From NCBI GenBank assembly GCA_001799565.1, contig MGTS01000042.1, positions 157,793-221,792 of the forward strand: a DNA stretch of 64,000 bases. The letters run 5' to 3'. A program made the position numbers and the translations under genes. This stretch comes from Elusimicrobia bacterium GWA2_51_34 (GTDB taxonomy: Bacteria; Elusimicrobiota; Elusimicrobia; Elusimicrobiales; UBA9959). The notes below the pieces were generated by a model that worked only from the letters and a program-made list of their open reading frames with translations, was not told the DNA's origin and made no database searches. Below, piece by piece: positions 9,292 to 62,028 of the stretch. Every line of letters begins with the position of its first letter. Positions within the stretch are counted from its first letter, which is position 1.

Positions 9292-9397
9292 AAGGTCACA
9301 TGCCACAAGTCAGCTTAGTCTCAAGTTTCAAGTTACAAGTTCAAGCGAACTCACATTCTGGACTTGTGACCTGTGACCTGTGACTTGTGACTTGTAA
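9292..9397. repeat. Heptamer-arm hairpin, GTCACAR dialect, AACTCACATTCT loop
   Basis: Left arm is made of ..cacaagt/caagttt units and the right arm is gacttgtgacctgtgacctgtgacttgtgacttgtaa. The loop motif is shared with 26564.. and 29688... Confidence 0.8.
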
Positions 9398-10931
9398 TTA
9401 TTCTTCCGGCCAGCCTGCACGCGGCGGCATTTGAGGGCATTACCAGCACGCCTTCTGCCTCAAGGCCCTTCACCACTTTTGAACGCGTCTGCGGGTCCGT
9501 CTCGGTGCCGGTTACAGATGACACAATTGAAAGGCTCTTGTTGGCCTGAAAGGCTTTCCGTATGGACGGCAAAATATCATCCAAGGGCCGCATGTTAGAG
9601 CCGTAGCCCAGCACTACGTCAAGCAGAATAACGGACACATCAGGTCTGACGGCTTCAGAAACTATCATTTTGTTGCGCAGGGAATAGTCTATCATCGGGT
9701 GAGGGCGGCCTACGGTAAATTCGTCCTCGCCCAGATCAACAACCGCGTGCTCAGTAAGACGCATTGAGTCTTTCAATTTCCATTTTTTATCCAGCGGAGC
9801 GTTGGACCAGAGCGGGCCGATAATGCCAGGCAGGATTACCTGCGCTTCGCTTACGAAGGTGCCGCCTGAAAACAGGCCTCGCAAGTATTTACCGGCGGAT
9901 TTTTTCAGCGCAGCTTCCTTCCGCGCCAGGGTTTCCGCTTTCAGGTTCGTGTCGTAAATAATTTCTTTGGCCCTGGCCATTTGCCAGCCCTTACTGAGGC
10001 AGACCGCCTTTAACGCCGCTTCCTCAAGAGTGTTCGCCGCGTAAAAATTATCTTTTATCTTTCCCTTTATTTCTCCGCCCAGAAAGATCGCCGCCACGGG
10101 TTTTTTTATTTTTTTGATTTCCACGATTATCTTTTTAAGTATTTCAGGATGGGGGGGCTTTGAAACTATAAGTATTACCTCAGTGGCGGAGTCCGCGGCC
10201 AGCATTTTCAAACCCTGCAGCAGGGTAAGGGCCCCCACCTCAAGTTTAACGTCGCGCGAGCCGGTGCCTATAGCCTGAGAAACACCCGCGCCTTCATTTG
10301 AAATAAGCGTGGACACTTCCTGAAGGCCGGTGCCTGAAGCCGCCACTATGCCTATGTTCCCGCGCCGCACGGAGTTGGCAAAAGCGAGCGGCGCCCCGTT
10401 TATTATCGCGGTACCGCAGTCGGGGCCCATTACCAGCAGGCCTTTGGCAAGCGCCAGCTTTTTAAGTTCCACCTCCGTTTCCAGCGGAACGTTATCGGAA
10501 AAAAGCATCACATTAAGATTTTTTTCAAGGCAGTCGGCCGCCAACGCTCCGGCAAAGCGGCCTGCCACCGAAACTATGGCCAGGTTAGCACCGTCAAGCG
10601 TTTTAACTGCGTCCTCAAGGCCGGAGGCTTTTCTGTCGGAGCCGGCTTCGGCGGGGGCGGGCTTCCTGTTGAGCAATTCTTCTGCGGCCTTAAGCGCCGC
10701 TTCAGCCGCCGGCGGGTTTTTGGCTTTAACGGCCACAGCCAGGTCGCTGTCGCCGGCTTTAAGCACTTCCGGAGTAAGCAGACCGGACGCTTTTATAATT
10801 CCCTTGTTTTCCCTGGTGGCCATCACCACGGCCGAGTCTATTACTCCGGGAATAGAGTTAAGTTTTCTCGCGACCTGCATAAGCGAAACCGAGTCAAAAT
10901 AAGCGCCTTTTTTAATAATCGTTTTTATCAT
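9351..10931 (-). CDS. fdrA: FdrA-like acyl-CoA synthetase family protein
   Basis: 526 aa with a succinyl-CoA-synthetase-alpha-like CoA-binding/ligase fold signature. Clusters with DUF1116 and DUF2877 as in E. coli fdrA-ylbE-ylbF. The C-terminal tail SHKSQVTGHKSRM is encoded by the repeat arm. Confidence 0.75.
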   Translation of the reverse strand: MIKTIIKKGAYFDSVSLMQVARKLNSIPGVIDSAVVMATRENKGIIKASGLLTPEVLKAGDSDLAVAVKAKNPPAAEAALKAAEELLNRKPAPAEAGSDRKASGLEDAVKTLDGANLAIVSVAGRFAGALAADCLEKNLNVMLFSDNVPLETEVELKKLALAKGLLVMGPDCGTAIINGAPLAFANSVRRGNIGIVAASGTGLQEVSTLISNEGAGVSQAIGTGSRDVKLEVGALTLLQGLKMLAADSATEVILIVSKPPHPEILKKIIVEIKKIKKPVAAIFLGGEIKGKIKDNFYAANTLEEAALKAVCLSKGWQMARAKEIIYDTNLKAETLARKEAALKKSAGKYLRGLFSGGTFVSEAQVILPGIIGPLWSNAPLDKKWKLKDSMRLTEHAVVDLGEDEFTVGRPHPMIDYSLRNKMIVSEAVRPDVSVILLDVVLGYGSNMRPLDDILPSIRKAFQANKSLSIVSSVTGTETDPQTRSKVVKGLEAEGVLVMPSNAAACRLAGRIITSHKSQVTGHKSRM

Positions 10932-10948
10932 ATGTTCTCCATAAATTT

Positions 10949-11061
10949 CAGTCTCAAGTCACAGGTCACAAGTCACAAGTGAAAACAAGACAATCACAAG
11001 TCCCCAGTAAACTGCAGAACTGCTATTTACTTGTGACCTGTGACTGGTGTCCTGTAACCTG
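10949..11061. repeat. Heptamer-arm hairpin, GTCACAR dialect
   Basis: Left arm ctcaagtcacaggtcacaagtcacaagt... and right arm acttgtgacctgtgactggtgtcctgtaacctg. Confidence 0.75.
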
Positions 11062-12835: not shown

Positions 12836-12926
12836 GACTACAAGCTAGTAAGCTGGTAGGCTAGTATGCTGGTATGCTTTTTAAGGAACTCCTTATAAGG
12901 CCTACTAGCCTACCCGCCTACTAGCA
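12836..12926. repeat. Octamer-arm hairpin, CTACCAGC dialect, palindromic AAGGAACTCCTT loop
   Basis: Left arm agctagtaagctggtaggctagtatgctggtatgc, loop tttttaaggaactccttataagg, right arm cctactagcctacccgcctactagc. Shares a 27-nt identical run with 42143... Confidence 0.8.
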
Positions 12927-17672: not shown

Positions 17673-18023
17673 CTAAAGACTTTTATAGAAACACCACAAC
17701 AAACGGCCTGTCTCACACCTTAACGTCTCAACCTCAGCAAAAACTTTTTCCGGCAAATATCCCACGTCTTTACAAAACTCAAGCAGGTATTCGGTCTCGG
17801 CAAGAGAACCAAGAGCTATGTTTGCAAACTGCTTTAATTCTTTATTCCCTTGCCTACCGGTTCCCTCAACTATATTCACAGGCACAGATAGTGCGGCACG
17901 CCTCAACTGGCTTGTAACCCCATAAACTTCATCTTTTGGAAAAGACGATGTAGCGGCATAAACGGCCTTTGCCAATGCATCCGCTTTCTTCCATACCTCA
18001 AGCTTTTTGTATCCCTTTTCCAC
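17673..18023 (-). CDS. Four-helix-bundle protein (23S rRNA intervening-sequence protein / Avd family), paralog 2
   Basis: 116 aa with GTG start. Same hallmark pattern (LEVWKKA...FPKDEVYGVTSQLRRAALSVPVNIVEGTGR...GSLAE). Confidence 0.85.
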   Translation of the reverse strand: MEKGYKKLEVWKKADALAKAVYAATSSFPKDEVYGVTSQLRRAALSVPVNIVEGTGRQGNKELKQFANIALGSLAETEYLLEFCKDVGYLPEKVFAEVETLRCETGRLLWCFYKSL

Positions 18024-18052
18024 GCTTATCCCTTCTGATTTCTGTCTTGTGA

Positions 18053-18225
18053 CAACATAAATTCTGCTACTTGTGACCTGTGACTTGTGACAACAGAAAT
18101 TCTGCTACTTGTGACCTGTGACTTGTGTCTTGTGACAACAGAAATTCTGCTACTTGTGACCTGTGACTTGTGTCTTGTGACAACAGAAATTCTGCTACTT
18201 GTGACCTGTGACTTGTGTCTTGTGA
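18053..18225. repeat. Tandem array, one 38-nt plus three 45-nt units (caacagaaattctgctacttgtgacctgtgacttgtgtcttgtga)
   Basis: Units start at 18053, 18091, 18136 and 18181. The three full units are identical or nearly identical. Each contains a GTCACAR-dialect arm. Confidence 0.9.
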
Positions 18226-18226
18226 C

Positions 18227-18254
18227 AGCAAAATGAGCGAAAGCTCATTTTGCT
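18227..18254 (-). terminator. 12-bp stem with GAAA-type tetraloop right after the cyclase stop codon
   Basis: agcaaaatgagc-gaaa-gctcattttgct. There is no clean U-run beyond the stem, so it may be a stabiliser or processing hairpin rather than a terminator. Confidence 0.3.
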
Positions 18255-19069
18255 TACGCTGTCCAGGCCACTACCCGGCCCATGGCGGATTCCAACTCAA
18301 TGCCCTTCAGGGGGAAAAAGCCCAGCCAGCAGCGTTTATTGGATAGTTTGTCTATTTCTCCGCCGATATTCTCAGCGTGCACAAGACGCTTGGGGAACAG
18401 TTTCAGGTGCATTACCTGATAGTATTCTTCAAAAGGAAACATCTCATCCCATGCCTTACCGTAATTTACCTTAAGCTTGTGTTCGGCCTCCAGGAACAGC
18501 TTGGGATGCCAGTTGCGTATTATGGTGTTCATGGGATGATCGGCGGAACCGCAGTCCACGCCTATCCATTTAAATTTCATGGCCAGCGCCCACTTATGAA
18601 ATTTAGGGCCGGGGCCGGGGTGTTTGCAGAAATAACGCACCTCGTCGCAGACATTTTTTTCATACCACGCGTATTTGTGATAGCCGGTGTTGATTATTAA
18701 AATGTCTCCCTTACGGATATCGGCGCGCTTCATAAGCATTTCGGGCTCATAGAGATCGTAATCTCCGACATCTTTGGAAATATCAACAACAACCGCGTTT
18801 CCTATCCACTCATTCATGGGAACTTCACCTATGGTGCGGCCGGCGCTGTAGAAATGAATTTCGCCGTCCATGTGCGTGCCCACATGGTTGGAAGTCTTCA
18901 TTATCTGGCCGTTTGCGCCCTGCCCCATATGCGCGCCCGCTATGCGCTTGAAATACTGAAGCTGGAGCGGCATGTAGCTTGGCCAGGGGGGGGTGTGGAT
19001 GCTCAAAGGCTGGGTAAGGTCGTACATTTTCGCATGCTCCATTACTTTGATAAAGTCAGTGGGTTTCAT
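18254..19069 (-). CDS. Cyclase family protein (kynurenine/aryl-formamidase-like)
   Basis: 271 aa with the metal-binding motif HVGTHMDGEIH (HxGTHxDxxxH). Confidence 0.8.
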   Translation of the reverse strand: MKPTDFIKVMEHAKMYDLTQPLSIHTPPWPSYMPLQLQYFKRIAGAHMGQGANGQIMKTSNHVGTHMDGEIHFYSAGRTIGEVPMNEWIGNAVVVDISKDVGDYDLYEPEMLMKRADIRKGDILIINTGYHKYAWYEKNVCDEVRYFCKHPGPGPKFHKWALAMKFKWIGVDCGSADHPMNTIIRNWHPKLFLEAEHKLKVNYGKAWDEMFPFEEYYQVMHLKLFPKRLVHAENIGGEIDKLSNKRCWLGFFPLKGIELESAMGRVVAWTA

Positions 19070-19089: not shown

Positions 19090-19250
19090 TGCCATAAGCC
19101 GTAAGTTTCAGATACGGCTATTTGCCATAAGCCATAGGCAGAAAGACTGCCATAAGCTTTACGCCATATGCCATAGGCTTGTAAGGAACTCCTTAAAAGC
19201 TTACGGCCTATGGCGGGTGCGGCGCCCTTATGGCCTACGGCGTAACAAAG
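19090..19250. repeat. Hairpin, CCATARGC dialect, AAGGAACTCCTT loop
   Basis: Left part gccataagccgtaagtttcagatacggctatttgccataagccataggc..., loop gtaaggaactccttaaaagc, right arm ttacggcctatggcgg..cttatggcctacgg. Homologous in reverse orientation to 27403... Confidence 0.8.
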
Positions 19251-19336
19251 CGATAGACGCTTTGTTACTATGAATTTTAACAAATGCGGGAGGGGGGTTC
19301 AATGTAAGAAAAATTCAACTCTGGCTCTCTTTATAT

Positions 19337-19367
19337 TGGATTCCTGCCAAAAACTTGCAGGAATGAC
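19337..19367 (-). repeat. Small palindromic element GTCATTCCYGC-N8-9-GCRGGAATCC
   Basis: Reverse complement reads gtcattcctgcaagtttttggcaggaatcca. A second copy is at 28275-28305. Confidence 0.6.
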
Positions 19368-19460
19368 AATCCTCAGTCACGGACAGCGCCATAGGCCCGC
19401 GACAAGCCAGTGTCACTGGAGGTGCCGTCTCAAAGGCCTATGGCCCTCAAACGGCCAGCG
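19367..19460 (+). repeat. ~95-nt palindromic element, intergenic copy A
   Basis: caatcctcagtcacggacagcgccataggcccgcgacaagccagtgtcactggaggtgccgtctcaaaggcctatggccc... is about 90 percent identical by eye to 40611-40706 inside yidC. Confidence 0.8.
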
Positions 19461-19496: not shown

Positions 19497-20300
19497 TTAT
19501 TCGTAAAAATTAAACCGCCAGCCGAGGCCGAGCCCGAAACGCAGGTTTTCCAGTTTTTCAGCCAGCGGCCCCGCAAGCTTTTTGTCGCCATCGGGAAGCC
19601 AGATTTTCTCATATATCAGGTAAAGGGAAGCCGCAAAACCGCGGTTTATCAAAGCGGGCGCGCTCAAACTGATTTGAAGGCCGGGGGAAAAAAGAAGGCC
19701 ATACGAAGCGGCCCGCTCGCTAAAGGCGGAATTATCCGCCAAAACACAGTCAACGGAATAGAACCGGTAAATACCTCCTGCACCCGCAAGCAAAGAAAAG
19801 TTTGCGAATTCACCCTGATAAAGCTCGCGGCCGAAATAAAGCGTAAGCGAGCGCGTTCTTGTTCTAAAACTATTCACCGCGTCCGAAGAATAGGTAACCG
19901 TGCTGTGCTCTATTATAACGGAAGTTATATTTTCTTTAACGTTAACGCCATTAGCGCGTAAAAAAGAGCCTTCATCTTTTATCGCAGGCAGGGCTGAGTC
20001 GCTGTATAAAAGCCGGAATGATCTTTTACTTTTGCCTGAACCCAGTTCAAAAGCCGGCAAACCGCGCAGGCTGTCATGGAAAAATATCAACTGCGCGGTC
20101 CAGTCGCGCTTAAATAATCCCCTGGGGGCGATTACTCCCTGCAAAGTTCCGGGCGCGTTTAAATCCAGAGAGGGGGAAATTCTTTCAGGAACCCGAGCGG
20201 AAGAAGTGGAGAGAGGAACGGCATATTCCGCAAAAACCGGGATTGAAACAAGAAAACACACTATAATTGAAAAAACAAAAACACCTTTGTATAGGAGCAT
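19497..20300 (-). CDS. Hypothetical secreted / outer-membrane-like protein
   Basis: 267 aa with an N-terminal hydrophobic signal-like segment and an aromatic-rich C-terminus (WRFNFYE). No family recognised. Confidence 0.55.
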   Translation of the reverse strand: MLLYKGVFVFSIIVCFLVSIPVFAEYAVPLSTSSARVPERISPSLDLNAPGTLQGVIAPRGLFKRDWTAQLIFFHDSLRGLPAFELGSGKSKRSFRLLYSDSALPAIKDEGSFLRANGVNVKENITSVIIEHSTVTYSSDAVNSFRTRTRSLTLYFGRELYQGEFANFSLLAGAGGIYRFYSVDCVLADNSAFSERAASYGLLFSPGLQISLSAPALINRGFAASLYLIYEKIWLPDGDKKLAGPLAEKLENLRFGLGLGWRFNFYE

Positions 20301-38380: not shown

Positions 38381-38526
38381 TAGTCCTCCGTGGAGCCGCT
38401 GAAAGTCAGCAACCCCATCATAGTTCCTGCGACTTTCTGTGCAGGAACAATTATACCTATTTTAAAATTCACCGGCTGTCGCAGCCGGCAGCGCCGGAAG
38501 TCAGTTTCTTTGCCAGTTGCCAGGAG

Positions 38527-38571
38527 TTTACCAGCCTACCAGCTTACCAGCATACAAGCCTACTAGCAAGC
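38527..38571. repeat. Single CTACCAGC-dialect arm
   Basis: tttaccagcctaccagcttaccagcatacaagcctactagcaagc, with no clear partner arm. Confidence 0.55.
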
Positions 38572-38573
38572 AG

Positions 38574-39197
38574 TCACACAAACTGCGCCGTATTCAGCGT
38601 TATACCCAGTTCCTCTCCAAAAAATTTATTTATCAGCCCCTCAAGCATGTTTTCGGCGGCACGGTCATCCTTTAACTCCGCCACTTCAAGCCAGGAGCCG
38701 CAATGCATCGCCTCCCAAAACCGTGAATCAAAACCGAGTGAAGTTTCTTTAAGGCCGTAGCCGGCAAGCTCCATAACACGCAAAATAAAAGCGAACCGCA
38801 TCCACGCGGAGGGGGGGTTGACGTCCAGCGCCTGAAGCGCGGAAAGCAGCAGTTCGTATTTCCCGGCGCTCGGCTGGGCCGCCGGAGTCAGTTTGTTGAC
38901 TACCTCGCAAAAATGAAACGCCATAAAAATTCTGTCCCGGCTGGCGCGCAGGCCGGGAAAAATAGACAAGGTGGCGCCTCCTGTGCATACGGGGAAGTTT
39001 GAACCGCCGCGCAGATAAAAACGATAATCGCCCCAGGTTATGGGTTCGCTCAGGGCTTTAAGCTTGCCTGCCGCCCTGCGCACACTTTTAAAATTCACCT
39101 CCAGCTTGCCTCCCCCTTTGGTGAAAACCGTGACTATGCGGTCGTTCTCCCGCAGCGGGCGGCTTCTAAGGACTATTCCGTAATCGCAAAAAATCAT
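38574..39197 (-). CDS. recO: DNA repair protein RecO
   Basis: 207 aa with an N-terminal OB-fold-like region (GIVLRSRPLRENDRIVTVFT). Confidence 0.8.
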   Translation of the reverse strand: MIFCDYGIVLRSRPLRENDRIVTVFTKGGGKLEVNFKSVRRAAGKLKALSEPITWGDYRFYLRGGSNFPVCTGGATLSIFPGLRASRDRIFMAFHFCEVVNKLTPAAQPSAGKYELLLSALQALDVNPPSAWMRFAFILRVMELAGYGLKETSLGFDSRFWEAMHCGSWLEVAELKDDRAAENMLEGLINKFFGEELGITLNTAQFV

Positions 39198-40478: not shown

Positions 40479-42134
40479 ATGCAGAAAAATCTTGTACTTG
40501 CCGTAGTTTTATCATCGGTGGTATATATTTTTTGGTACTCTTTTATGGAGAAGAGGATGCCTCCTCGCGCCGCCTCCTCCGTTTCATCGTCCTCTTACCC
40601 GCAAACCGCTCAATCCTCAGTCGCGGACAGCGCCAGAGGCCCGCGACAGGCCAGTGTCACTGGAGGTGCCGTCCCAAAGGCCTTTGGCCCACAAAACGGC
40701 CAAAACCCCGCGGCTGCAAACACCTCTTCCCCGCAGCCCCCGTCACAGCAGGCTTCATTACAGCCGACCTCAGGCGAACTGCCGGCCGATTGGAAAACAA
40801 AGGCCGCCCGCGTTAAGCTCGGCAAAGCGGAATATTTTATCCACCCCGCCGGAGCTTCCATAAAAAGCATGGTTTACGAAGGCCCGGTGGCCCCCATAGA
40901 ACTGGTGCTGTCGCCGGAAGACGGGCTGTTTTCAAGCTTTGAAGGCCTTACCTTTTCCATAAAGAACAAAAACGCGCAAAACCCGGAATTCTCGGCAAAA
41001 ACAAAACAGGGCGTGACCATATCAAAAAAATTCTTTCTAAACGGTCCCGACGGTATAAATTCCATTGAAATAACCGCCTCAAACGCCTCATCGGAACCCG
41101 CCGCGCTTGAACCCTGGACGCTTTCTATCGGCCCGGGCCTTGGTACGGCGCCCAGCGAGGAAAAAGAAAATCCCGGACTGACATACGCCCAATACACTTT
41201 TCAAGAACCGGGGAAAAAACACCCCACGATAAAAAAGCTGAAGGAAGACGTCCGGACGGAGCCGTGGGTGTGGGCCGGGGTGGATAACCGCTACTTTATC
41301 GCGGCGGTTATAGGCGGTGTTTTCGACAGGGACCGCCTTCTCTACTCCGCGGTGGAAATAAAAGGCAACAAGGTTCCTCGCCTCGCGATCCCATTCGGAG
41401 AGACAAAACTCGCTCCCGGAGCGGTAAAAACCTGGAAGCTTGATTTTTACGCCGGCCCGAAAGACTACGCCCTGCTTAAAAGCCTCGGCAGCGGGCTTGA
41501 CCGCGCGGTGGACTTCGGCTTCTTCGCTCCGCTGGCCAAACTTGCCGACTCCTCGCTTGGGTACTTTTACCGCCTGACCGGCAATTATGGCGTGGCCATA
41601 ATCATACTCAGCGTGCTTATACAGATAATGCTCTCCCCTTTAAGCATAAAAAGCTACAAATCCATGGCGCTGATGAAAAAAATACAGCCGGAAATGCAGG
41701 AGATACAGAAGCGCTACAAAGCCGACCCCAAACGCATGAACCAGGAGGTAATGGACCTTTATAAGCGCCACGGCACCAATCCTCTTGGCGGCTGCCTGCC
41801 GATGCTCCTGCAGATACCGGTCTTTTTCGCGCTATTTACGGCACTGAGAAATTCCTGGAATTTACACGGCGCGCCGTTTATTTTCTGGATAAAAGACTTG
41901 TCGTCCAAGGACCCGTATTATGTGCTGCCGCTGGTAATGGGAGCGATAATGTTTTTTCAGCAGACTTTGAACCCGCAGGCGGGCGACCCTGCCCAGGCGA
42001 AGATGATGAAATGGATGCCGGTTATTTTCACGTTCATGTTTCTCAGCTTCCCCGCGGGGCTTGTAATGTACTGGCTTATAAACAGCATGTGGGGATTTGC
42101 CCAAACGATGTATCTGCAGAAAAAGATGGCGTGA
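40479..42134 (+). CDS. yidC: Membrane protein insertase YidC
   Basis: 551 aa. N-terminal TM segment, large periplasmic region and a C-terminal 60-kDa insertase core (GCLPMLLQIPVFFALF). Carries a repeat-derived in-frame segment at 40611-40706. Confidence 0.9.
   Translation: MQKNLVLAVVLSSVVYIFWYSFMEKRMPPRAASSVSSSSYPQTAQSSVADSARGPRQASVTGGAVPKAFGPQNGQNPAAANTSSPQPPSQQASLQPTSGELPADWKTKAARVKLGKAEYFIHPAGASIKSMVYEGPVAPIELVLSPEDGLFSSFEGLTFSIKNKNAQNPEFSAKTKQGVTISKKFFLNGPDGINSIEITASNASSEPAALEPWTLSIGPGLGTAPSEEKENPGLTYAQYTFQEPGKKHPTIKKLKEDVRTEPWVWAGVDNRYFIAAVIGGVFDRDRLLYSAVEIKGNKVPRLAIPFGETKLAPGAVKTWKLDFYAGPKDYALLKSLGSGLDRAVDFGFFAPLAKLADSSLGYFYRLTGNYGVAIIILSVLIQIMLSPLSIKSYKSMALMKKIQPEMQEIQKRYKADPKRMNQEVMDLYKRHGTNPLGGCLPMLLQIPVFFALFTALRNSWNLHGAPFIFWIKDLSSKDPYYVLPLVMGAIMFFQQTLNPQAGDPAQAKMMKWMPVIFTFMFLSFPAGLVMYWLINSMWGFAQTMYLQKKMA
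40611..40706 (+). repeat. ~95-nt palindromic element, copy B, in-frame inside yidC
   Basis: caatcctcagtcgcggacagcgccagaggcccgcgacaggccagtgtcactggaggtgccgtcccaaaggcctttggccc... encodes QSSVADSARGPRQASVTGGAVPKAFGPQNGQ. Confidence 0.8.
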
Positions 42135-42142
42135 GTTTATAA

Positions 42143-42231
42143 GGCTGGTAAGCTAGTAGGCTAGTATGCTGGTATGCTTTTTAGGAGTTACTAAAAGGCC
42201 TTCTGGCCTACCCGCTTACCAGCATACTAGC
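42143..42231. repeat. Octamer-arm hairpin, CTACCAGC dialect
   Basis: Left arm ggctggtaagctagtaggctagtatgctggtatgc, loop tttttaggagttactaaaagg, right arm ccttctggcctacccgcttaccagcatactagc. Confidence 0.8.
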
Positions 42232-42267
42232 AATAATTCTCTGAAAGTTAATCTGGAGGAATAAAAA

Positions 42268-43242
42268 ATGAAAGAGATAAAAGCGGAAGCGAACACTATA
42301 CAGGACGCCGTAGAGAAAGGCCTTTCCGAAATAGGCATGCGGCGCGACCAGGTTGAGGTTGTGGTGGTGCATGAAGGCACCCGCGGTTTCCTTGGCATAG
42401 GCGCCAAAAAAGCCTGCGTTATTTTAAGGGAGAAAAAATGGACCGGAACCGGCGCCCAGCAGGAAGATGACAGCCGGCGCCGCCCGTCTTATGGAAACAG
42501 CGAGCCCAGGCGTTCCCGCGGCGGCCGCGGGGGCGGGCGTTATGAGCGGGGGGGAGAACGGCGCCCCGATGCAAGAGCAAATTACGCGGCAAGGGGAAAC
42601 CGCGACGCGGCGCCGTCCCCGCAGTTCCAGACAGCGCCGGAAGCGCGTGACAGATCGGAATCACGACCGTTCGCAAGGAGCGCAATGGCCCGTCCGCCCG
42701 CGGCTGACCTTGTATTCAAGGAAGAGAGCCTGCCGGAATCCGTAACTTCCTTTAAGGCCCCCGAGGACCCGCTTGAACACTCAAAGCTGGCTCTTATAAA
42801 AACGCTGGAACTTCTTGGCATGCCCGCCACCATCGCGGACGCCTCCTACAACCAGGCGGAAGCTCTTGTTTCGCTGCGCTTTGACTGCGCCCAAACGCAG
42901 TTTTTCACCGCCGAAAACGGCCGCGCCCTGCAGGCCCTGCAGTTCCTTGTAAATTCCATGCTGAATAAAAACCGCCAGCCGCGCCTGGCGCTGAGAGTGG
43001 ACACCGGCGACTACTGGAAAAACAAAGAAACTGAAATAGCTAAAAGAGTTGAACAGGCCGTAAATGAAGTAAAAACCAGTTCACAACCATGCCGGCTTGA
43101 ACCTATGCCCGCGCCTATGCGCAAGCTGATTCATAACCTTGTAAAAAGCTCCTATCCCGAAATGGAAACCATGTCGGAAGGAGAAGGCCAATGGCGAAAA
43201 GTAGTGATACGCCAGATGACACCCAAGCAGGAAGTAAAATAA
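42268..43242 (+). CDS. jag: RNA-binding protein Jag/KhpB (Jag_N-KH-R3H)
   Basis: 324 aa downstream of yidC. Jag_N-like N-terminus, an RGG/R-rich disordered linker and a C-terminal KH/R3H-like region. Confidence 0.8.
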   Translation: MKEIKAEANTIQDAVEKGLSEIGMRRDQVEVVVVHEGTRGFLGIGAKKACVILREKKWTGTGAQQEDDSRRRPSYGNSEPRRSRGGRGGGRYERGGERRPDARANYAARGNRDAAPSPQFQTAPEARDRSESRPFARSAMARPPAADLVFKEESLPESVTSFKAPEDPLEHSKLALIKTLELLGMPATIADASYNQAEALVSLRFDCAQTQFFTAENGRALQALQFLVNSMLNKNRQPRLALRVDTGDYWKNKETEIAKRVEQAVNEVKTSSQPCRLEPMPAPMRKLIHNLVKSSYPEMETMSEGEGQWRKVVIRQMTPKQEVK

Positions 43243-44735: not shown

Positions 44736-44759
44736 GTAATATTTCAGAAAGCGTGGGGG

Positions 44760-44853
44760 AAGCTAGTAGGCGTGTATGCTTGTAGGCCTAATTTAGGAAC
44801 TCCACAGAAAGCATACCAGCATACAAGCTTACCAGCCTACCAGCAAACTTCAC
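44760..44853. repeat. Octamer-arm hairpin, CTACCAGC dialect
   Basis: Left arm gctagtaggcgtgtatgcttgtaggcc, loop taatttaggaactccacagaaa, right arm gcataccagcatacaagcttaccagcctaccagc. Confidence 0.8.
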
Positions 44854-44866
44854 TACGGAACTAATT

Positions 44867-45611: not shown

Positions 45612-45722
45612 TAGCGGGCAGGCTGGTAGGCGAGTAGGCCAGTAGGCTGGTATGCGGGTAAGTTTTTTGTAGAATTCACAATTAGGCCTACAAGCATACA
45701 CGCCTACCAGCCTACTAGCTGG
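45612..45722. repeat. Octamer-arm hairpin, CTACCAGC dialect
   Basis: Left arm gcgggcaggctggtaggcgagtaggccagtaggctggtatgcggg and right arm aattaggcctacaagcatacacgcctaccagcctactagc. Confidence 0.8.
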
Positions 45723-45743
45723 CGGCCTTACATACATCTTACT

Positions 45744-53429: not shown

Positions 53430-53596
53430 TAGGCTGTAGGCTATTAGACTATTAGGTAAGGCCGTCTGATGGCCATAGGCCTTGGCCGCTTTTTTGCGCA
53501 TAGCGCTCGTTGCGGCACGCCCAAAGGTCAGATACGACACTGGCATAGCCTTGAATCAGATTTGACTGACAACCTAATAGCCTTCAGCCCTCAGCC
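53430..53596. repeat. Hairpin, GGCTGTAGG/CTAATAGCC dialect with an expanded (~110 nt) loop
   Basis: Left arm aggctgtaggctattagactattaggtaagg and right arm gaatcagatttgactgacaacctaatagccttcagccctcagcc. Arms match 30733.. but the loop is much longer. Confidence 0.7.
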
Positions 53597-53608: not shown

Positions 53609-54490
53609 ATGCCCCACCCTAAATATTTTGACGCGCATAACCACATTCAAAACTATTCGGGCCCGTGTGAAGCCGGCGCAGGGCGCGCGGGACTGATACT
53701 CTTAAACGGCACAGCGCCGGATGACTGGCAAAAGGTCCTGGACCTGGCCGCCGCCGACGAGCGGATTTGGCCCTGTTTCGGCCTGCACCCCTGGTTCATA
53801 AATAAAGCCGGACCGCGCTGGCTTGAAGAACTGGAACTGTTTCTTAAGCGCGCGCCCTCCTGCGTGGGCGAGATAGGCCTGGACGGCGCGAAAAATACCG
53901 GCGCCAAGCGGCAGGAGGAAGTTTTCACGTCCCAGCTTAAACTGGCCGCCCGGCTCAGGCGGCCCGTCTGCCTGCATTGCGTAAAAGCCTGGGGAAAGAT
54001 GTTGAAAATAATTAAAGAAGAACTGCCGGGAACTTTCATGCTGCACTCTTACGGCGGCCCGGCCGAAATGATAAAAGAATTTTCCGCGCTGGGCGCTTAT
54101 TTTTCGTTCGGCTCCGCGATAATGGATCCGAAAAGGGGGAAATTACGCGAAGCGCTTTTAACCGTTCCTCCGGATCGCCTGCTTTTTGAAACCGAGCCGT
54201 CCTACTTCGCCAAGGCTTCGAAGGGACGTGGTCCTGCGAAGCTATTGTCGAGCGAAGCAAACCCGTCCTCCTTCGCCAAGGCTTCGGAGGGACGTAGTCC
54301 TGCGAAGCTGTTGTCAAGCGAAGCAGACCCGTCCTCCTTCGCCAAGGCTTCGGAGGGACATGGTCTGCCGGTATTGATTTCCGCAGCGGCGGACGTTATG
54401 GGCAGACCCGCCCAGGAACTTGCGGAACTTTCCTGGGTCAATGGAATTAAATTTTTAGGAGATATAGTAGATGTAAATAGTAAAGAGTAA
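53609..54490 (+). CDS. TatD-family metal-dependent hydrolase carrying an in-frame tandem repeat insertion
   Basis: 293 aa with an N-terminal FDAHNH metal motif and a TatD-like core. Residues around 197-254 are encoded by the 66-nt repeat. Confidence 0.8.
   Translation: MPHPKYFDAHNHIQNYSGPCEAGAGRAGLILLNGTAPDDWQKVLDLAAADERIWPCFGLHPWFINKAGPRWLEELELFLKRAPSCVGEIGLDGAKNTGAKRQEEVFTSQLKLAARLRRPVCLHCVKAWGKMLKIIKEELPGTFMLHSYGGPAEMIKEFSALGAYFSFGSAIMDPKRGKLREALLTVPPDRLLFETEPSYFAKASKGRGPAKLLSSEANPSSFAKASEGRSPAKLLSSEADPSSFAKASEGHGLPVLISAAADVMGRPAQELAELSWVNGIKFLGDIVDVNSKE
54197..54369 (+). repeat. 66-nt palindromic element, 2.6 tandem copies, in-frame in tatD
   Basis: Units start at 54197, 54263 and 54329. 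Units 1 and 2 differ at 6 of 66 positions. They encode PSYFAKASKGRGPAKLLSSEAN / PSSFAKASEGRSPAKLLSSEAD / PSSFAKASEGHG. Confidence 0.9.
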
Positions 54491-54580: not shown

Positions 54581-55333
54581 ATGACCGAAGACCGACTCGC
54601 GCGCATAAGACTGCTGGTGGGCTCCGGCGGCGTTGAACGCCTGAAGAATTCCTTTGTTGTTGTGGCCGGGCTTGGCGCGGTAGGCAGTTACGCCGTGGAA
54701 GGCCTGGCAAGGGCCGGCGTGGGCCGCCTTCGGCTTGTGGATTTTGACATTATAAAGGAAAGCAACATCAACCGCCAGCTTTACGCTTTGGGCTCTACCA
54801 TCGGAAAACACAAAGCCGACGTAGCCGCCGGCCGGGTGCTGGACATCAACCCTGCCTGCCGCGTGGAACCGCTTAAAATTTTCGCGGCGGACGAAACTTT
54901 TGACACAATACTTGAAGGCGACCCCGACATAGTAATAGACGCCATTGACGCCATGGGCCCGAAGACCGCCTTCATAGCGGAAACGCAAAAGAGGGGGATA
55001 AAACTTATCTCTTCCATGGGCGCGGCCCTGCGCACCGACCCTTCCGCCATACGAGTGGGCCCCTTCGCGCAAGCGCACGGCTGCCCGCTGGCCGCCAGGC
55101 TTAAGTACTGGCTCAGGAAGAAGAACTCGCCCCCGCAGTTCACCTGCGTTTACTCCGTAGAACCGCTGGGCCGTCTTCGCCTTGCGGCACGCCAGGCTGC
55201 GGCTCCTGAAAAAGATTATTACGACCGCGGCCGCCGGCGGGCCGCTTTAGGCAGCCTTCCCACTATTACGGGAATTTTCGGCCTCACTATAGCCAATACC
55301 GCGATACAAACATTGATAGCGAGTAGGGGTTAG
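54581..55333 (+). CDS. tcdA: tRNA threonylcarbamoyladenosine dehydratase (ThiF/E1-like)
   Basis: 250 aa with a Rossmann GLGAVGS motif. TcdA/CsdL-like length and pattern. Confidence 0.8.
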   Translation: MTEDRLARIRLLVGSGGVERLKNSFVVVAGLGAVGSYAVEGLARAGVGRLRLVDFDIIKESNINRQLYALGSTIGKHKADVAAGRVLDINPACRVEPLKIFAADETFDTILEGDPDIVIDAIDAMGPKTAFIAETQKRGIKLISSMGAALRTDPSAIRVGPFAQAHGCPLAARLKYWLRKKNSPPQFTCVYSVEPLGRLRLAARQAAAPEKDYYDRGRRRAALGSLPTITGIFGLTIANTAIQTLIASRG

Positions 55334-55474
55334 CGAATAGCGAATAGCGACGGAGTTTCTTAAATAAAGTTCCCGTTCCTCCCCAGTCGCGGACAACGCC
55401 AGAGGCCCGCGACAGGCCAGAGTCACTATTCGCTAACCCCTATTCGCTATTCGCTTTCCTACTATTCGCTACGC
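55321..55474. repeat. Heptamer-arm hairpin, GCGAATA dialect, with a partial copy of the 95-nt element in its loop
   Basis: Left arm aggggttagcgaatagcgaatagcga, loop contains cagtcgcggacaacgccagaggcccgcgacaggccagagtcact, right arm attcgctaacccctattcgctattcgc. Confidence 0.8.
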
Positions 55475-55530
55475 ACTACCTCAAATTCCACAAAAAATCC
55501 TTATTTTTCAATGCTTTTTTGTACAGGGTA

Positions 55531-60459: not shown

Positions 60460-62028
60460 ATGACCCTCACCGACATTCTAAAAAATACGGGGGAAACTCC
60501 GGGCGCGGACGGGTCTGCTTCGCTTAACAATAGTTTCGCAGGACCACGTCCCTTCGAAGCCTTGGCGAAGAAGGACGGCGGCGTGGAAATAACGGCCATT
60601 ACGAACGATTCGCGCAAGGCGGTTAAAGGCGCGCTTTTTTTCGCCCTGCCCGGCGCCAAAACCGACGGAAGCCTCTATATCCGGCAAGCCCTTGAAAACG
60701 GCGCTTCAGCCGTTGTTTCACAAAACGCCGCGGACCCCGCTTTGAAAACCGCCTACCCCTCGGCCGTCTGGCTTCGCACCCCGGACATTTCAGCGCTCCT
60801 TTCCACCGCAGCGGCCAACTTTTACCATAACCCTTCGGCAGAGCTTAAAGTAACAGGGCTTACCGGCACAAAAGGAAAAACCACCACCGCCTACCTTCTT
60901 GAAAGCATACTGGCCGCGCACGGCGACAAGCCGGGCGTGGCAGGCACCATAAACTACCGCGTGAACGGCAGGGTGCTTTCAAAAGCCGCGAACACCACCC
61001 CGCTCGCCCACGACCTGCAGGCCCTGCTTCGCGCTATGGTCGGCGCCGGGGCGAAAAGCGCCATAATGGAAATTTCGTCCCACGCGCTCGCGCTCAAACG
61101 CGCCGACAATGTGCGATTTGACTGCGCCGTATTCACAAACCTGCAAAGCGACCACATGGATTTCCACAAAACCCGCGGGGACTACTTCCTTGCCAAGGCC
61201 CGGCTTTTTGAACTGCTGGCCGCTTCGCCTAAAAAAAACAAAACCGCGGTTATAAACGCGGACGACGAAATGGCCGCTGAACTTATAAGCGGGCTTTCCC
61301 GCGGCCTGAAAACCCTTACCTTTGCCGTTGACGGGAAAGCGGACTTTAAAGCCTCTGCGGTACAAATACTGGAACAAAAAACGCTTTTCAACCTTAACGC
61401 GCCCGGGGGTAAAACGCCTGTCGTCCTTAACCTGCTAGGCCTGCATAATGTTTACAACGCGCTCGCCGCGATAACGGCGGCGTGCGCCATGGGCGTAGGG
61501 CTTGAAACCGCCGTTAAAGGCGTCCAGGCGCTCACACGGGTGCCGGGGCGCCTTGAGCGTATAGACCTGGGGCAGAATTTCACCGTATTTGTGGACTACG
61601 CCCACACCGGCGCGGCCCTTGAAAGCGTGCTTACAAATTTAAAAAAACTGCCGCATGCGAAAATAATCACCGTTTTCGGCTGCGGGGGCGACCGCGACCG
61701 CACCAAACGCGCGCCCATGGGAGCGGTTTCCTGCTCTTTAAGCGACCGGGTTATAATAACAAGCGACAATCCTAGGACCGAGGACCCCGCCCGGATTTTC
61801 TCGGATATTGAAAAAGGACTCGCCGGTGTATTCTTAAATTATGAAACACTCCCCTGCCGCCGGGAAGCCATTTTCAAGGCCATAGCCGCCGCTTCAAAAG
61901 GCGACATCGTGCTTATAGCCGGAAAAGGCCACGAGGACTATCAGATACTAAAGAACGAAACTATCCATTTCAGCGACCGGGAAGAAGCCGAAGAAGCGAT
62001 AAAAAAGAAAATGCAAAATGCAAAATGA
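60460..62028 (+). CDS. murE: UDP-N-acetylmuramoyl-L-alanyl-D-glutamate--2,6-diaminopimelate ligase
   Basis: 522 aa with the GTKGKTTT P-loop, a Mur ligase middle and C-terminal domain pattern, and a DNPR motif. The N-terminus carries one reverse-oriented copy of the 66-nt element. Confidence 0.9.
   Translation: MTLTDILKNTGETPGADGSASLNNSFAGPRPFEALAKKDGGVEITAITNDSRKAVKGALFFALPGAKTDGSLYIRQALENGASAVVSQNAADPALKTAYPSAVWLRTPDISALLSTAAANFYHNPSAELKVTGLTGTKGKTTTAYLLESILAAHGDKPGVAGTINYRVNGRVLSKAANTTPLAHDLQALLRAMVGAGAKSAIMEISSHALALKRADNVRFDCAVFTNLQSDHMDFHKTRGDYFLAKARLFELLAASPKKNKTAVINADDEMAAELISGLSRGLKTLTFAVDGKADFKASAVQILEQKTLFNLNAPGGKTPVVLNLLGLHNVYNALAAITAACAMGVGLETAVKGVQALTRVPGRLERIDLGQNFTVFVDYAHTGAALESVLTNLKKLPHAKIITVFGCGGDRDRTKRAPMGAVSCSLSDRVIITSDNPRTEDPARIFSDIEKGLAGVFLNYETLPCRREAIFKAIAAASKGDIVLIAGKGHEDYQILKNETIHFSDREEAEEAIKKKMQNAK
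60511..60578 (-). repeat. 66-nt palindromic element, single reverse-oriented copy, in-frame in murE
   Basis: The reverse complement ccgtccttcttcgccaaggcttcgaagggacgtggtcctgcgaaactattgttaagcgaagcagaccc differs from tatD unit 1 at about 5 of 66 positions. In murE it encodes GSASLNNSFAGPRPFEALAKKDG. Confidence 0.9.

Follow-up and report, generated by a model that had tools for sequence, protein, structure and literature searches.

A modular repeat with putative hairpins residing in frame within yidC of an Elusimicrobia bacterium

We analyzed a stretch of 64,000 nucleotides (nt) from Elusimicrobia bacterium GWA2_51_34 (contig MGTS01000042.1; hereafter, the window), in which the gene yidC carries an element at positions 40611-40702. 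This element was inserted into yidC, it belongs to a family of repeats with copies inside and outside of the window, it is assembled from modules, and members of the family reside within genes in several reading frames. The explanation that we regard as likely is that a dispersed and non-autonomous repeat with hairpin modules, resembling repetitive extragenic palindromic (REP) sequences and Rickettsia palindromic elements (RPEs), inserted recently into yidC. We infer that the element is selfish and neutral. Loci that were fetched for comparison are designated by the letter L and a number.

An insertion of 30 codons in yidC

The host gene and the parts of the element are as follows.

40479..42134, plus strand: yidC host gene, an open reading frame (ORF) of 551 amino acids with the Pfam domains YidC_periplas and 60KD_IMP
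40611..40702, plus strand: composite repeat element, in frame in yidC, with a net gain of 90 nt or 30 codons (approximately amino acids 45-74)
40611..40618, plus strand: left arm of the B element, CAATCCTC; where B lacks the core, CAATCCTC is directly followed by TGGAGG
40619..40660, plus strand: 42-nt core, AGTCGCGGACAGCGCCAGAGGCCCGCGACAGGCCAGTGTCAC, with the 7-bp stem GTCGCGG/CCGCGAC (nhmmer E 1.5e-15)
40661..40702, plus strand: right arm of the B element, with an outer stem GCCGT/ACGGC around CCAAAGG/CCTTTGG and then CCCACAAA; it matches other B copies by blastn and nhmmer

The top protein matches of the 551-amino-acid ORF are Elusimicrobia YidC insertases of 509-540 amino acids. The preliminary description of the window had given the peptide encoded by the element, and we find this peptide in frame in the ORF, reading QSSVADSARGPRQASVTGGAVPKAFGPQNGQ. 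Exactly these 30 residues are missing in 13 of 13 aligned YidC orthologs, the closest of which is 92% identical over the aligned positions. At the DNA level, the orthologs have an intact empty site, which reads ACC GCT CAA AGC CCC in L005 and ACC GCC CAA AAC ACT in L006. In the window, the corresponding sequence is ACC GCT, the insert (CAA TCC TCA ... AAC GGC) and then CAA AAC CCC. CA(A) is therefore present at both ends, where a duplicated target and the element's own termini would look the same. The preliminary description had named conservation of the segment in distant orthologs as the observation that would speak against its view; the aligned orthologs and the empty site show the opposite.

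The exact 551-amino-acid protein is on record on 12 contigs, and the 1656-nt gene is nucleotide-identical in all four of the loci that were fetched, which come from a JGI metagenome, two NCBI metagenome-assembled genomes (MAGs) and an ENA groundwater assembly; the MAGs GCA_003534785.1 and GCA_001799745.1 contain this yidC. Since four separately deposited assemblies contain the identical gene, the insert is not an assembly artefact.

It had also been proposed that the insert occupies a permissive linker, and the predicted protein structure agrees with this proposal. In an AlphaFold model that is of moderate quality only (mean predicted local distance difference test (pLDDT) score 59.5, based on a shallow alignment), the first transmembrane segment (TM1) is a helix at residues 2-23, and the periplasmic beta-domain (P1) begins at approximately residue 105 with a pLDDT of roughly 80-89. 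Residues 18-98 have a pLDDT below 50 and lack secondary structure, and within them the insert has a pLDDT of 25-30, likewise with no secondary structure. The insert thus lies between TM1 and the periplasmic domain, in a linker whose length also differs between aligned orthologs. The same linker contains a further difference of five amino acids, ASLQP (40749-40763, amino acids 91-95), relative to all aligned orthologs; this lies outside of the repeat element. A tryptic peptide predicted from the insert region is GPRQASVTGGAVPK.

Copies elsewhere in the window

Further copies of the element or of its parts were found at the following positions.

19367..19457, plus strand: intergenic composite copy (B left arm 19367-19374, core 19375-19416, B right arm 19417-19457)
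19335..19366, plus strand: additional hairpin module, GGATTCCTGCC...GCAGGAATGA, adjoining the intergenic composite copy
55385..55426, plus strand: intergenic copy of the core only, between a ThiF-family gene and mraZ (nhmmer E 3.5e-14)
53459..53496, minus strand: partial, intergenic B-like module without a core (nhmmer E 0.017; 24 nt at 92% identity by blastn)

Positions 40611-40695 and 19367-19451 are 93% identical over 85 ungapped nt (blastn E 2e-30), and one 1-nt gap extends the match to 40611-40702 and 19367-19457, still at approximately 93% identity. The similarity of these two copies was thus noticed correctly in the preliminary description, but the repeat ends at 40702, not at 40706. 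A recurrence of the first half of the element had similarly been reported at 55376-55428. This recurrence is real, in that blastn aligns the 42-nt core with 55384-55427 at 95% identity, but its extent is 55385-55426. A 46-nt pattern of the core, allowing up to 3 mismatches, occurs twice in the window, and its expected number in shuffled sequences is 0.00.

The copy at 19367 is flanked by two minus-strand ORFs, 18254..19069 (cyclase family) and 19497..20300 (uncharacterised). The hairpin module beside it also adjoins the element in L054 and L034, where it has a compensatory variant, GGATTCCCGCC...GCGGGAATGA. The core at 55385-55426 sits between the arms of an inverted repeat composed of TAGCGAA units.

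A core nested within a second module

In the preliminary description, the element was viewed as a single palindromic element of roughly 95 nt. Its parts are indeed palindromic, but the whole is a nested composite of two hairpin modules and has no terminal inverted repeats. One module, B, is 50 nt long and palindromic. With a slash marking the position at which the core can be present, it reads CAATCCTC/TGGAGGTGCCGTC-CCARAGG CCTYTGG-CCCACAARACGGCCA, or in outline CAATCCTC/TGGAGG..ACGGCCA. Copies of B that lack the core are present at four loci (L054:8170, L053:4845, L039:4455 and L019:4761). The copy at L053:4845-4894 keeps the frame of an ORF that by eye resembles the ribosome silencing factor RsfS; it lies close to the N-terminus and encodes NPLEVPSQRPLALTTAK. 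The other module, the core, has a 7-bp stem and a 14-nt loop and occurs alone at most sites, which have approximately 42 nt in common and unrelated flanks. In the window and the fetched loci together, we counted 56 copies of the core, single or in tandem, with 22 distinct sequences. A 51-nt variant of the core carries an additional GTCCGCCTGAGGCGGAC hairpin.

An empty and a filled version of the same site are available for the nesting itself: L019 has CAATCCTC joined to TGGAGG, and L008 has 42 nt between them, with no target duplication and at most 1 nt of ambiguity. Given that B and the core each occur alone, and given this pair, the supposed 95-nt element is a B element with a core nested in it. 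The composite is found at no fewer than six distinct sites, namely yidC, 19367, nusB (L020), grpE (L021/L025), queA (L038) and L055. Because the core is always at the same place within B, the composite probably spread to several loci as a unit.

Other hairpin modules adjoin copies in varied combinations, in the manner of bacterial interspersed mosaic elements (BIMEs). These modules are GGATTCCYGCC..GCRGGAATGA, GGGGAAACCGC..GCGGTGTCCCC, CCCACCACCCGC..GCGGGTGGTGG, and a 66-nt unit that is considered further below; a GTAG-tagged hairpin, GGCAAAGC..GCTTTGCC, is a module of the mosaics in the MAG UBA9634. Different mosaics are present at one nusB site (L020 versus L026). Modules also form tandem arrays, with a period of 42 nt in L034/L054, L041/L049, L044 and L051, and a period of 75 nt in L026 and L046. 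The number of tandem copies varies between the near-identical loci L040 (two copies) and L047 (three).

The unit lengths of 42, 51, 66 and 75 nt and the net gain of 90 nt in yidC are all multiples of three, although arrays within genes were ascertained for such lengths. The modules' separate gains would be 42 nt for the core and, by inference, 48 nt for B, each again a multiple of three. These lengths fit a family that has been filtered by life in genes. In many aligned copies, no terminal inverted repeats were found at the ends of the core (CAGTCGCGG../..GTGTCAC) or of B (CAATCC../..ACGGCCA). Every copy of B has CA at its start and at its end, and the yidC insertion shares 2-3 nt (CA/CAA) of this kind.

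Residence within other genes

At each sampled site, the longest ORF between stop codons that includes the copy was searched for Pfam domains. By this procedure, copies lie inside genes at approximately 17 of some 52 distinct sites, or about one third, and more than 30 sites are intergenic. Besides yidC, about 15-16 other genes are supported as hosts. The NusB and GrpE hosts were found by a peptide search and the others by Pfam.

Signal peptidase I, lepB (Peptidase_S26): copy before the S26 domain; sense, phase 1
MltA: copy within the MltA domain; antisense
CCA/poly(A) polymerase (PolyA_pol): head domain interrupted by the copy; sense, phase 1
QueA (Queuosine_synth): domain interrupted by the copy close to profile position 128; sense, phase 0
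BadF/BcrA-type ATPase (BcrAD_BadFG): two tandem cores in the domain span; sense, phase 2
Ribosomal protein S2, rpsB (Ribosomal_S2): C-terminal tail with three 25-amino-acid repeats; sense, phase 0
IF3 (infC): C-terminal tail; sense, phase 1
OmpA-family protein: N-terminal of the OmpA domain; sense, phase 1
LytR_C protein: N-terminal of the LytR_C domain; sense, phase 1
DUF192 protein: N-terminal of the DUF192 domain; sense, phase 1
GH3 glycosidase: N-terminal of the matched GH3 C-terminal domain; sense, phase 2
TPR protein: N-terminal of the TPR repeats; sense, phase 1
V-ATPase subunit I (V_ATPase_I): N-terminal part of the ORF; antisense
NusB: C-terminal tail; sense, phase 0
GrpE: N-terminal region; sense, phase 1

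In these hosts, copies are located in termini or linkers, and some split domains. The core is read as SVADSARGPRQASVT in phase 1, as QSRTAPEARDRPVS in phase 0 and as SRGQRQRPATGQCH in phase 2, and it is antisense in two cases (MltA and V_ATPase_I). Its use in three sense frames and in antisense indicates that the spread takes place at the level of DNA and that no protein motif is being propagated. For example, the copy in nusB (L020:927-1019) is 98% identical to the yidC copy in nucleotides and is translated in a different reading frame; grpE holds a variant of the element. The sense orientation is found in 15 of 17 coding copies (binomial P of roughly 0.012 against an expectation of 60%, with sites that are not all independent). 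MurF, HypF, an HD-domain protein and saccharopine dehydrogenase were at first taken as coding hosts on ORF length alone and then rejected, as the copies are upstream of the true starts.

Hairpins and composition

The preliminary description had listed the stems gtcgcgg/ccgcgac and ccagtg/cactgg and the palindrome aaaggccttt. They are present in the sequence as written there, and all of them are part of the predicted minimum-free-energy fold. Compensatory variation is found in both modules. The core stem has the variant GCCGCGG/CCGCGGC in place of GTCGCGG/CCGCGAC, in four distinct sequences, and 2 of 500 shuffles reach its score. The palindrome of B is CCAGAGG/CCTCTGG in L054 and CCAAAGG/CCTTTGG in the window.

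The element has a GC content of 65%, compared to 52% for the window, and its sense strand contains no stop codon. We considered stop-free frames as independent evidence of adaptation to genes and rejected them as such: three open sense frames occur in 8.6% of composition-preserving shuffles of the composite, and, for the core, at least five of the six frames are open in approximately 72% of shuffles. An Rfam scan of the whole window found nothing at gathering thresholds, and the only match, located at the intergenic copy, is a chance similarity to a miRNA (E 6.9). The element does not belong to any known RNA family.

The family beyond the window

In a scan for exact patterns, the core was found at 10 loci of the Elusimicrobia MAG UBA9634 and at one locus of another Elusimicrobia MAG, and there was one chance match in a Caldilineaceae MAG. 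A scan of metagenomes yielded 37 loci with 63 copies of the core. These copy counts are lower bounds, and the window's lineage is seemingly absent from the protein-homology and metagenome pattern collections. A peptide search of six-frame translations against 5.8 billion proteins gave only two matches; such a search is too insensitive for cores of 14 amino acids to serve as a census. Viral contigs contain no match to the core or B patterns, so there is no sign of a phage vector. Among the papers that were searched, none ties Elusimicrobia to palindromic or interspersed repeats.

Within UBA9634 (loci L009, L010, L016, L018, L008 and L019), the core usually occurs with a GTAG-tagged perfect hairpin, CTGTAGTGGCAAAGCTTGCTTTGCC. 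The form GTAGTGGCAAAGCTTGCTTTGCC of the GTAG-tagged hairpin adjoins the core, and in L009, L010, L016 and L018 the core is followed by a short complement containing CTAC. The GTAG-tagged hairpin is a classical REP signature and provides a lead for mobilisation of the type performed by REP-associated tyrosine transposases (RAYTs).

An older copy in the neighbouring gene jag

A further, decayed copy is present in the gene jag (42268..43242), which is a neighbour of yidC.

42591..42664, plus strand: old, decayed composite of an GGGGAAACCGC-type hairpin and a core, in frame in the jag linker, encoding ...QTAPEARDRSESRP

In a local alignment to the hairpin and core of L014, this copy has 52 matches in 73 positions with a 3-nt gap, and its score is 33, compared to a background maximum of 15. 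For its core part, nhmmer gives an E value of 0.15. In L005 (P0001 lineage), the closest sampled relative, the Jag protein carries a copy at the same position that is less decayed; for the more distant L006, the Jag linker aligns poorly and shows no evident copy. The jag copy is common to the window and L005, and the yidC site of L005 is empty. The family thus predates the split of these lineages, and the yidC insertion took place after it. The jag insertion is the older of the two.

Proposed mechanism and alternative explanations

Under the explanation that we favour, a 42-nt core would have inserted into a 50-nt B element after CAATCCTC, and the composite would then have spread as a unit. 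A copy that lands in a gene would keep the reading frame, given the length of 90 nt, module gains that are multiples of three and a stop-free, GC-rich sense strand, and would add a short hydrophilic peptide without truncating the protein. Selection may subsequently leave copies only where a protein can tolerate additional residues, as in its loops, linkers or termini. For YidC, this would be the disordered stretch that joins TM1 to the periplasmic domain, and the insert is most likely a neutral passenger. The repeats might be moved in trans by a hairpin-recognising enzyme, with single-stranded DNA as the most plausible substrate, as with REP sequences and RAYTs or with IS200/IS605; the insertion of the core without a target duplication suggests a single-stranded route. 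The family would then belong to a mosaic, REP- or RPE-like system of repeats in a clade of groundwater Elusimicrobia.

It is important to emphasize that several observations weigh against this explanation or limit its support. A tblastn search of approximately 413 kb of sampled loci with an approximate IS200 TnpA probe gave no match. A 663-aa ORF between inverted cores in L030 has no resemblance to a transposase by eye, a judgment made without a family search. Compared to shuffles, the folding energy of the whole element is not exceptional, with z = -1.67 in yidC and z = 0.01 at the intergenic site, and we therefore claim no single stable structure for the 92-nt unit. The absence of stops is not significant given the composition of the composite (P = 0.086, from shuffles). 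There is about one compensatory pair per stem, perhaps reflecting a single inherited event, and the search patterns themselves determined much of the core. The census is biased, since only exact pattern matches were collected and some loci are one site in different samples. Moreover, that the insert is kept in the yidC mRNA and protein is our assumption.

Two of the alternatives also treat the element as a repeat and differ as to how it arose. It might be a classical miniature inverted-repeat transposable element (MITE), i.e., a deletion derivative of an insertion sequence (IS) with terminal inverted repeats, moved by a DDE transposase and flanked by target-site duplications. MITEs share the element's small size, its non-coding nature, its dispersal and its occasional nesting, and a duplication of 2-3 bp at a favoured target could explain the CA/CAA at both yidC ends and the CA at all B ends. 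However, neither the core nor B has ends that form inverted repeats with each other, the core inserted with at most 1 nt of duplication (L019 versus L008), no parent IS was seen in the sampled flanks (approximately 413 kb), and tandem 42-nt arrays are atypical of MITEs, such that we consider this origin quite improbable. Alternatively, no transposition would be needed if recombination, gene conversion and replication slippage act among hairpin-rich mosaic repeats, as in a minisatellite similar to the mycobacterial interspersed repetitive units (MIRUs). Such processes would account for the 42- and 75-nt arrays, for copy numbers that differ between L040 and L047, for the different mosaics at the nusB site of L020 and L026, and for the frequent adjacency of modules to other repeats. 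We nonetheless find this explanation unlikely, given that the yidC site in orthologs holds no earlier repeat to recombine with, and that clean insertions amid conserved, unrelated domains (QueA, PolyA_pol and MltA) require a step of de novo insertion.

Other alternatives question whether the element is a mobile DNA repeat at all. The 30 residues could be a functional protein module under selection at the protein level, for example a linker or an interaction motif that several proteins have in common. They keep the reading frame of an essential gene and do not differ between the sampled assemblies, and similar peptides occur in GrpE, LepB, IF3 and other proteins. Yet one DNA sequence is read in three sense frames and in antisense to give unrelated peptides, around two thirds of the copies are intergenic, copies in unrelated genes share 98% nucleotide identity, and the segment is predicted to be disordered, all of which makes a protein module very improbable. 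The remaining idea, that the insert is an assembly artefact or that pieces of an ancestral yidC linker were copied to intergenic sites, deserves almost no credence. The source is metagenome-assembled, and repeats can cause mis-joins; however, yidC continues on both flanks, and the 1656-nt gene is the same in four separate assemblies. The segment is missing in orthologs, and the family has dozens of copies with unrelated flanks in several species.

A more ambitious proposal goes beyond the repeat insertion that we favour, and we offer it as a tentative possibility that is rather doubtful at present. The repeats may constitute an undescribed, still active modular system that is specifically adapted to life within protein-coding genes. 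Its units are multiples of three, its sense strand is stop-free, its orientation is biased toward sense and its modules nest, and an enzyme that recognises hairpins would move it. This system would repeatedly remodel linkers and loops of YidC, LepB, QueA, the CCA-adding enzyme, IF3, S2, NusB, GrpE and Jag.

Comparison with known repeats

The closest parallels in terms of residence within genes are the RPEs. Secondary accounts describe these as palindromic repeats of approximately 100-150 bp that are in frame in many unrelated Rickettsia genes (Ogata et al. 2000, 2002, as cited in PMC10969869 and PMC3733652). In common with RPEs, the Elusimicrobia repeats are short and dispersed and contain inverted repeats that may form hairpins, they are intergenic and also unusually often in frame in unrelated housekeeping genes, they add a peptide and do not destroy the protein, and the YidC linker is a structurally permissive position. 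However, the host here is a free-living groundwater Elusimicrobia lineage with a genome of 52% GC, and the modules of 42, 50 and 92 nt are GC-rich, nested, mosaic and arranged in tandem arrays. The family is not a member of RPE-1 to RPE-10; this assignment is based on host and size.

REP sequences are stem-loops tagged with GTAG or CGTC that form BIME mosaics and are moved by RAYTs; REPs within genes have been reported in Opitutus terrae, R. conorii and Thauera, and published CGTC families have 8-9 bp stems and 4-5 nt loops (PMC3733652). Like REPs, our repeats are short, scattered, high-copy stem-loops that form mosaics with other motifs, with no obvious duplication and with occasional copies in genes that encode 20-80 amino acids. 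In a partial resemblance to CGTC-tagged REPs, most copies of B have GCCGTC directly before the palindrome and a CCCA tail, and the clustering of modules into mosaics recalls BIMEs. In contrast to REPs, the core has no GTAG or CGTC tag (it starts with CAGTCGCGG), the stem and loop sizes of B are unlike those of the published CGTC families, the fraction of copies in genes is far above that of typical REPs, and a search of the sampled DNA (roughly 413 kb) with the approximate probe yielded no RAYT gene.

MITEs such as Correia/NEMIS, ERIC and Nezha are likewise small, non-autonomous, intergenic and intragenic repeats with occasional in-frame fusions; they are distinguished from the present repeats, in which terminal inverted repeats are absent and neither a clear target-site duplication nor, in the sampled flanks, a parent IS was found. 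MIRUs and other variable-number tandem repeats (VNTRs) are dispersed and tandem units of 40-100 nt that vary in copy number between strains and have lengths compatible with translation, and MIRUs lie in the intergenic regions of operons. The Elusimicrobia unit is similarly dispersed and present in copy-variable tandem arrays, but it is found inside the bodies of conserved genes and has conserved hairpins.

In-frame selfish repeats in essential genes were long a curiosity of Rickettsia and have since been reported in a few other bacteria. The present finding adds an abundant, modular family in a free-living candidate-phylum lineage that is known only from metagenomes, in which the neighbouring genes jag and yidC show an old and a fresh insertion. 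In the annotation of Elusimicrobia proteins, unexplained inserts of 14-30 amino acids, peptides repeated in tandem and extended termini should probably be read as derived from repeats and not as functional domains. Metagenome assemblies can likewise be interrupted or misled by such repeats. The many pairs of empty and filled sites and the variants in copy number make mobilisation testable in public time-series metagenomes.

The 66-nt repeat and other features of the window

The preliminary description had recognized at least two distinct repeat families within genes of the window, one of them being a 66-nt repeat.

54188-54385, plus strand: 66-nt repeat in three in-frame tandem copies, within a TatD-family gene (53609..54490)
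60507-60579, minus strand: inverted copy of the 66-nt repeat in the murE ORF, toward its 5' end and before the Mur_ligase domain

The residence of this repeat in a gene holds: its three in-frame copies interrupt the TatD domain, in that the Pfam match ends at profile position 210 of 253 (residue 211), inside the block of 66 residues formed by the repeat (residues 194-259). The two families behave as modules of one mosaic system. The 66-nt unit directly adjoins the core in L045 (L045:71-123) and is present on the core-bearing contig L057 (L057:908-959), and it seems to be another module of this system.

Most spacers of the window contain long inverted repeats of degenerate tandem units of 7-8 nt, which differ from spacer to spacer. 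Examples are 42136-42232, 38518-38583, 44754-44860, 45613-45735, 12836-12926 and 19091-19186, and further pairs are 9343-9400 with 10937-10980 and 55328-55349 with 55427-55480. The units include GCTGGTAG/CTACCAGC, GTCACAAG/CTTGTGAC, TAGCGAA/TTCGCTA, GCCATAAG and GGTTCAnn, among others. In the spacer between yidC and jag, the predicted fold has a perfect stem of 15 bp (z = -3.6). These inverted repeats may be terminators or another class of repeat. A 45-nt tandem repeat in about four copies, built from GTGAC-type units, is located at 18031-18233, adjoining a minus-strand gene (17673..18023) for a 23S_rRNA_IVP or bAvd-like four-helix bundle.

The window also contains a strand switch at approximately 31.7-39.5 kb, with minus-strand genes at 193-31670 and plus-strand genes from 39556. 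Near 32-38 kb the AT skew switches sign, but the GC skew shows no clear switch anywhere in the window. The region of the switch is possibly proximal to the replication origin. The plus-strand cluster rnpA-yidD-yidC-jag-mnmE and further ORFs starts at the switch, and L003 has rpmH just upstream.

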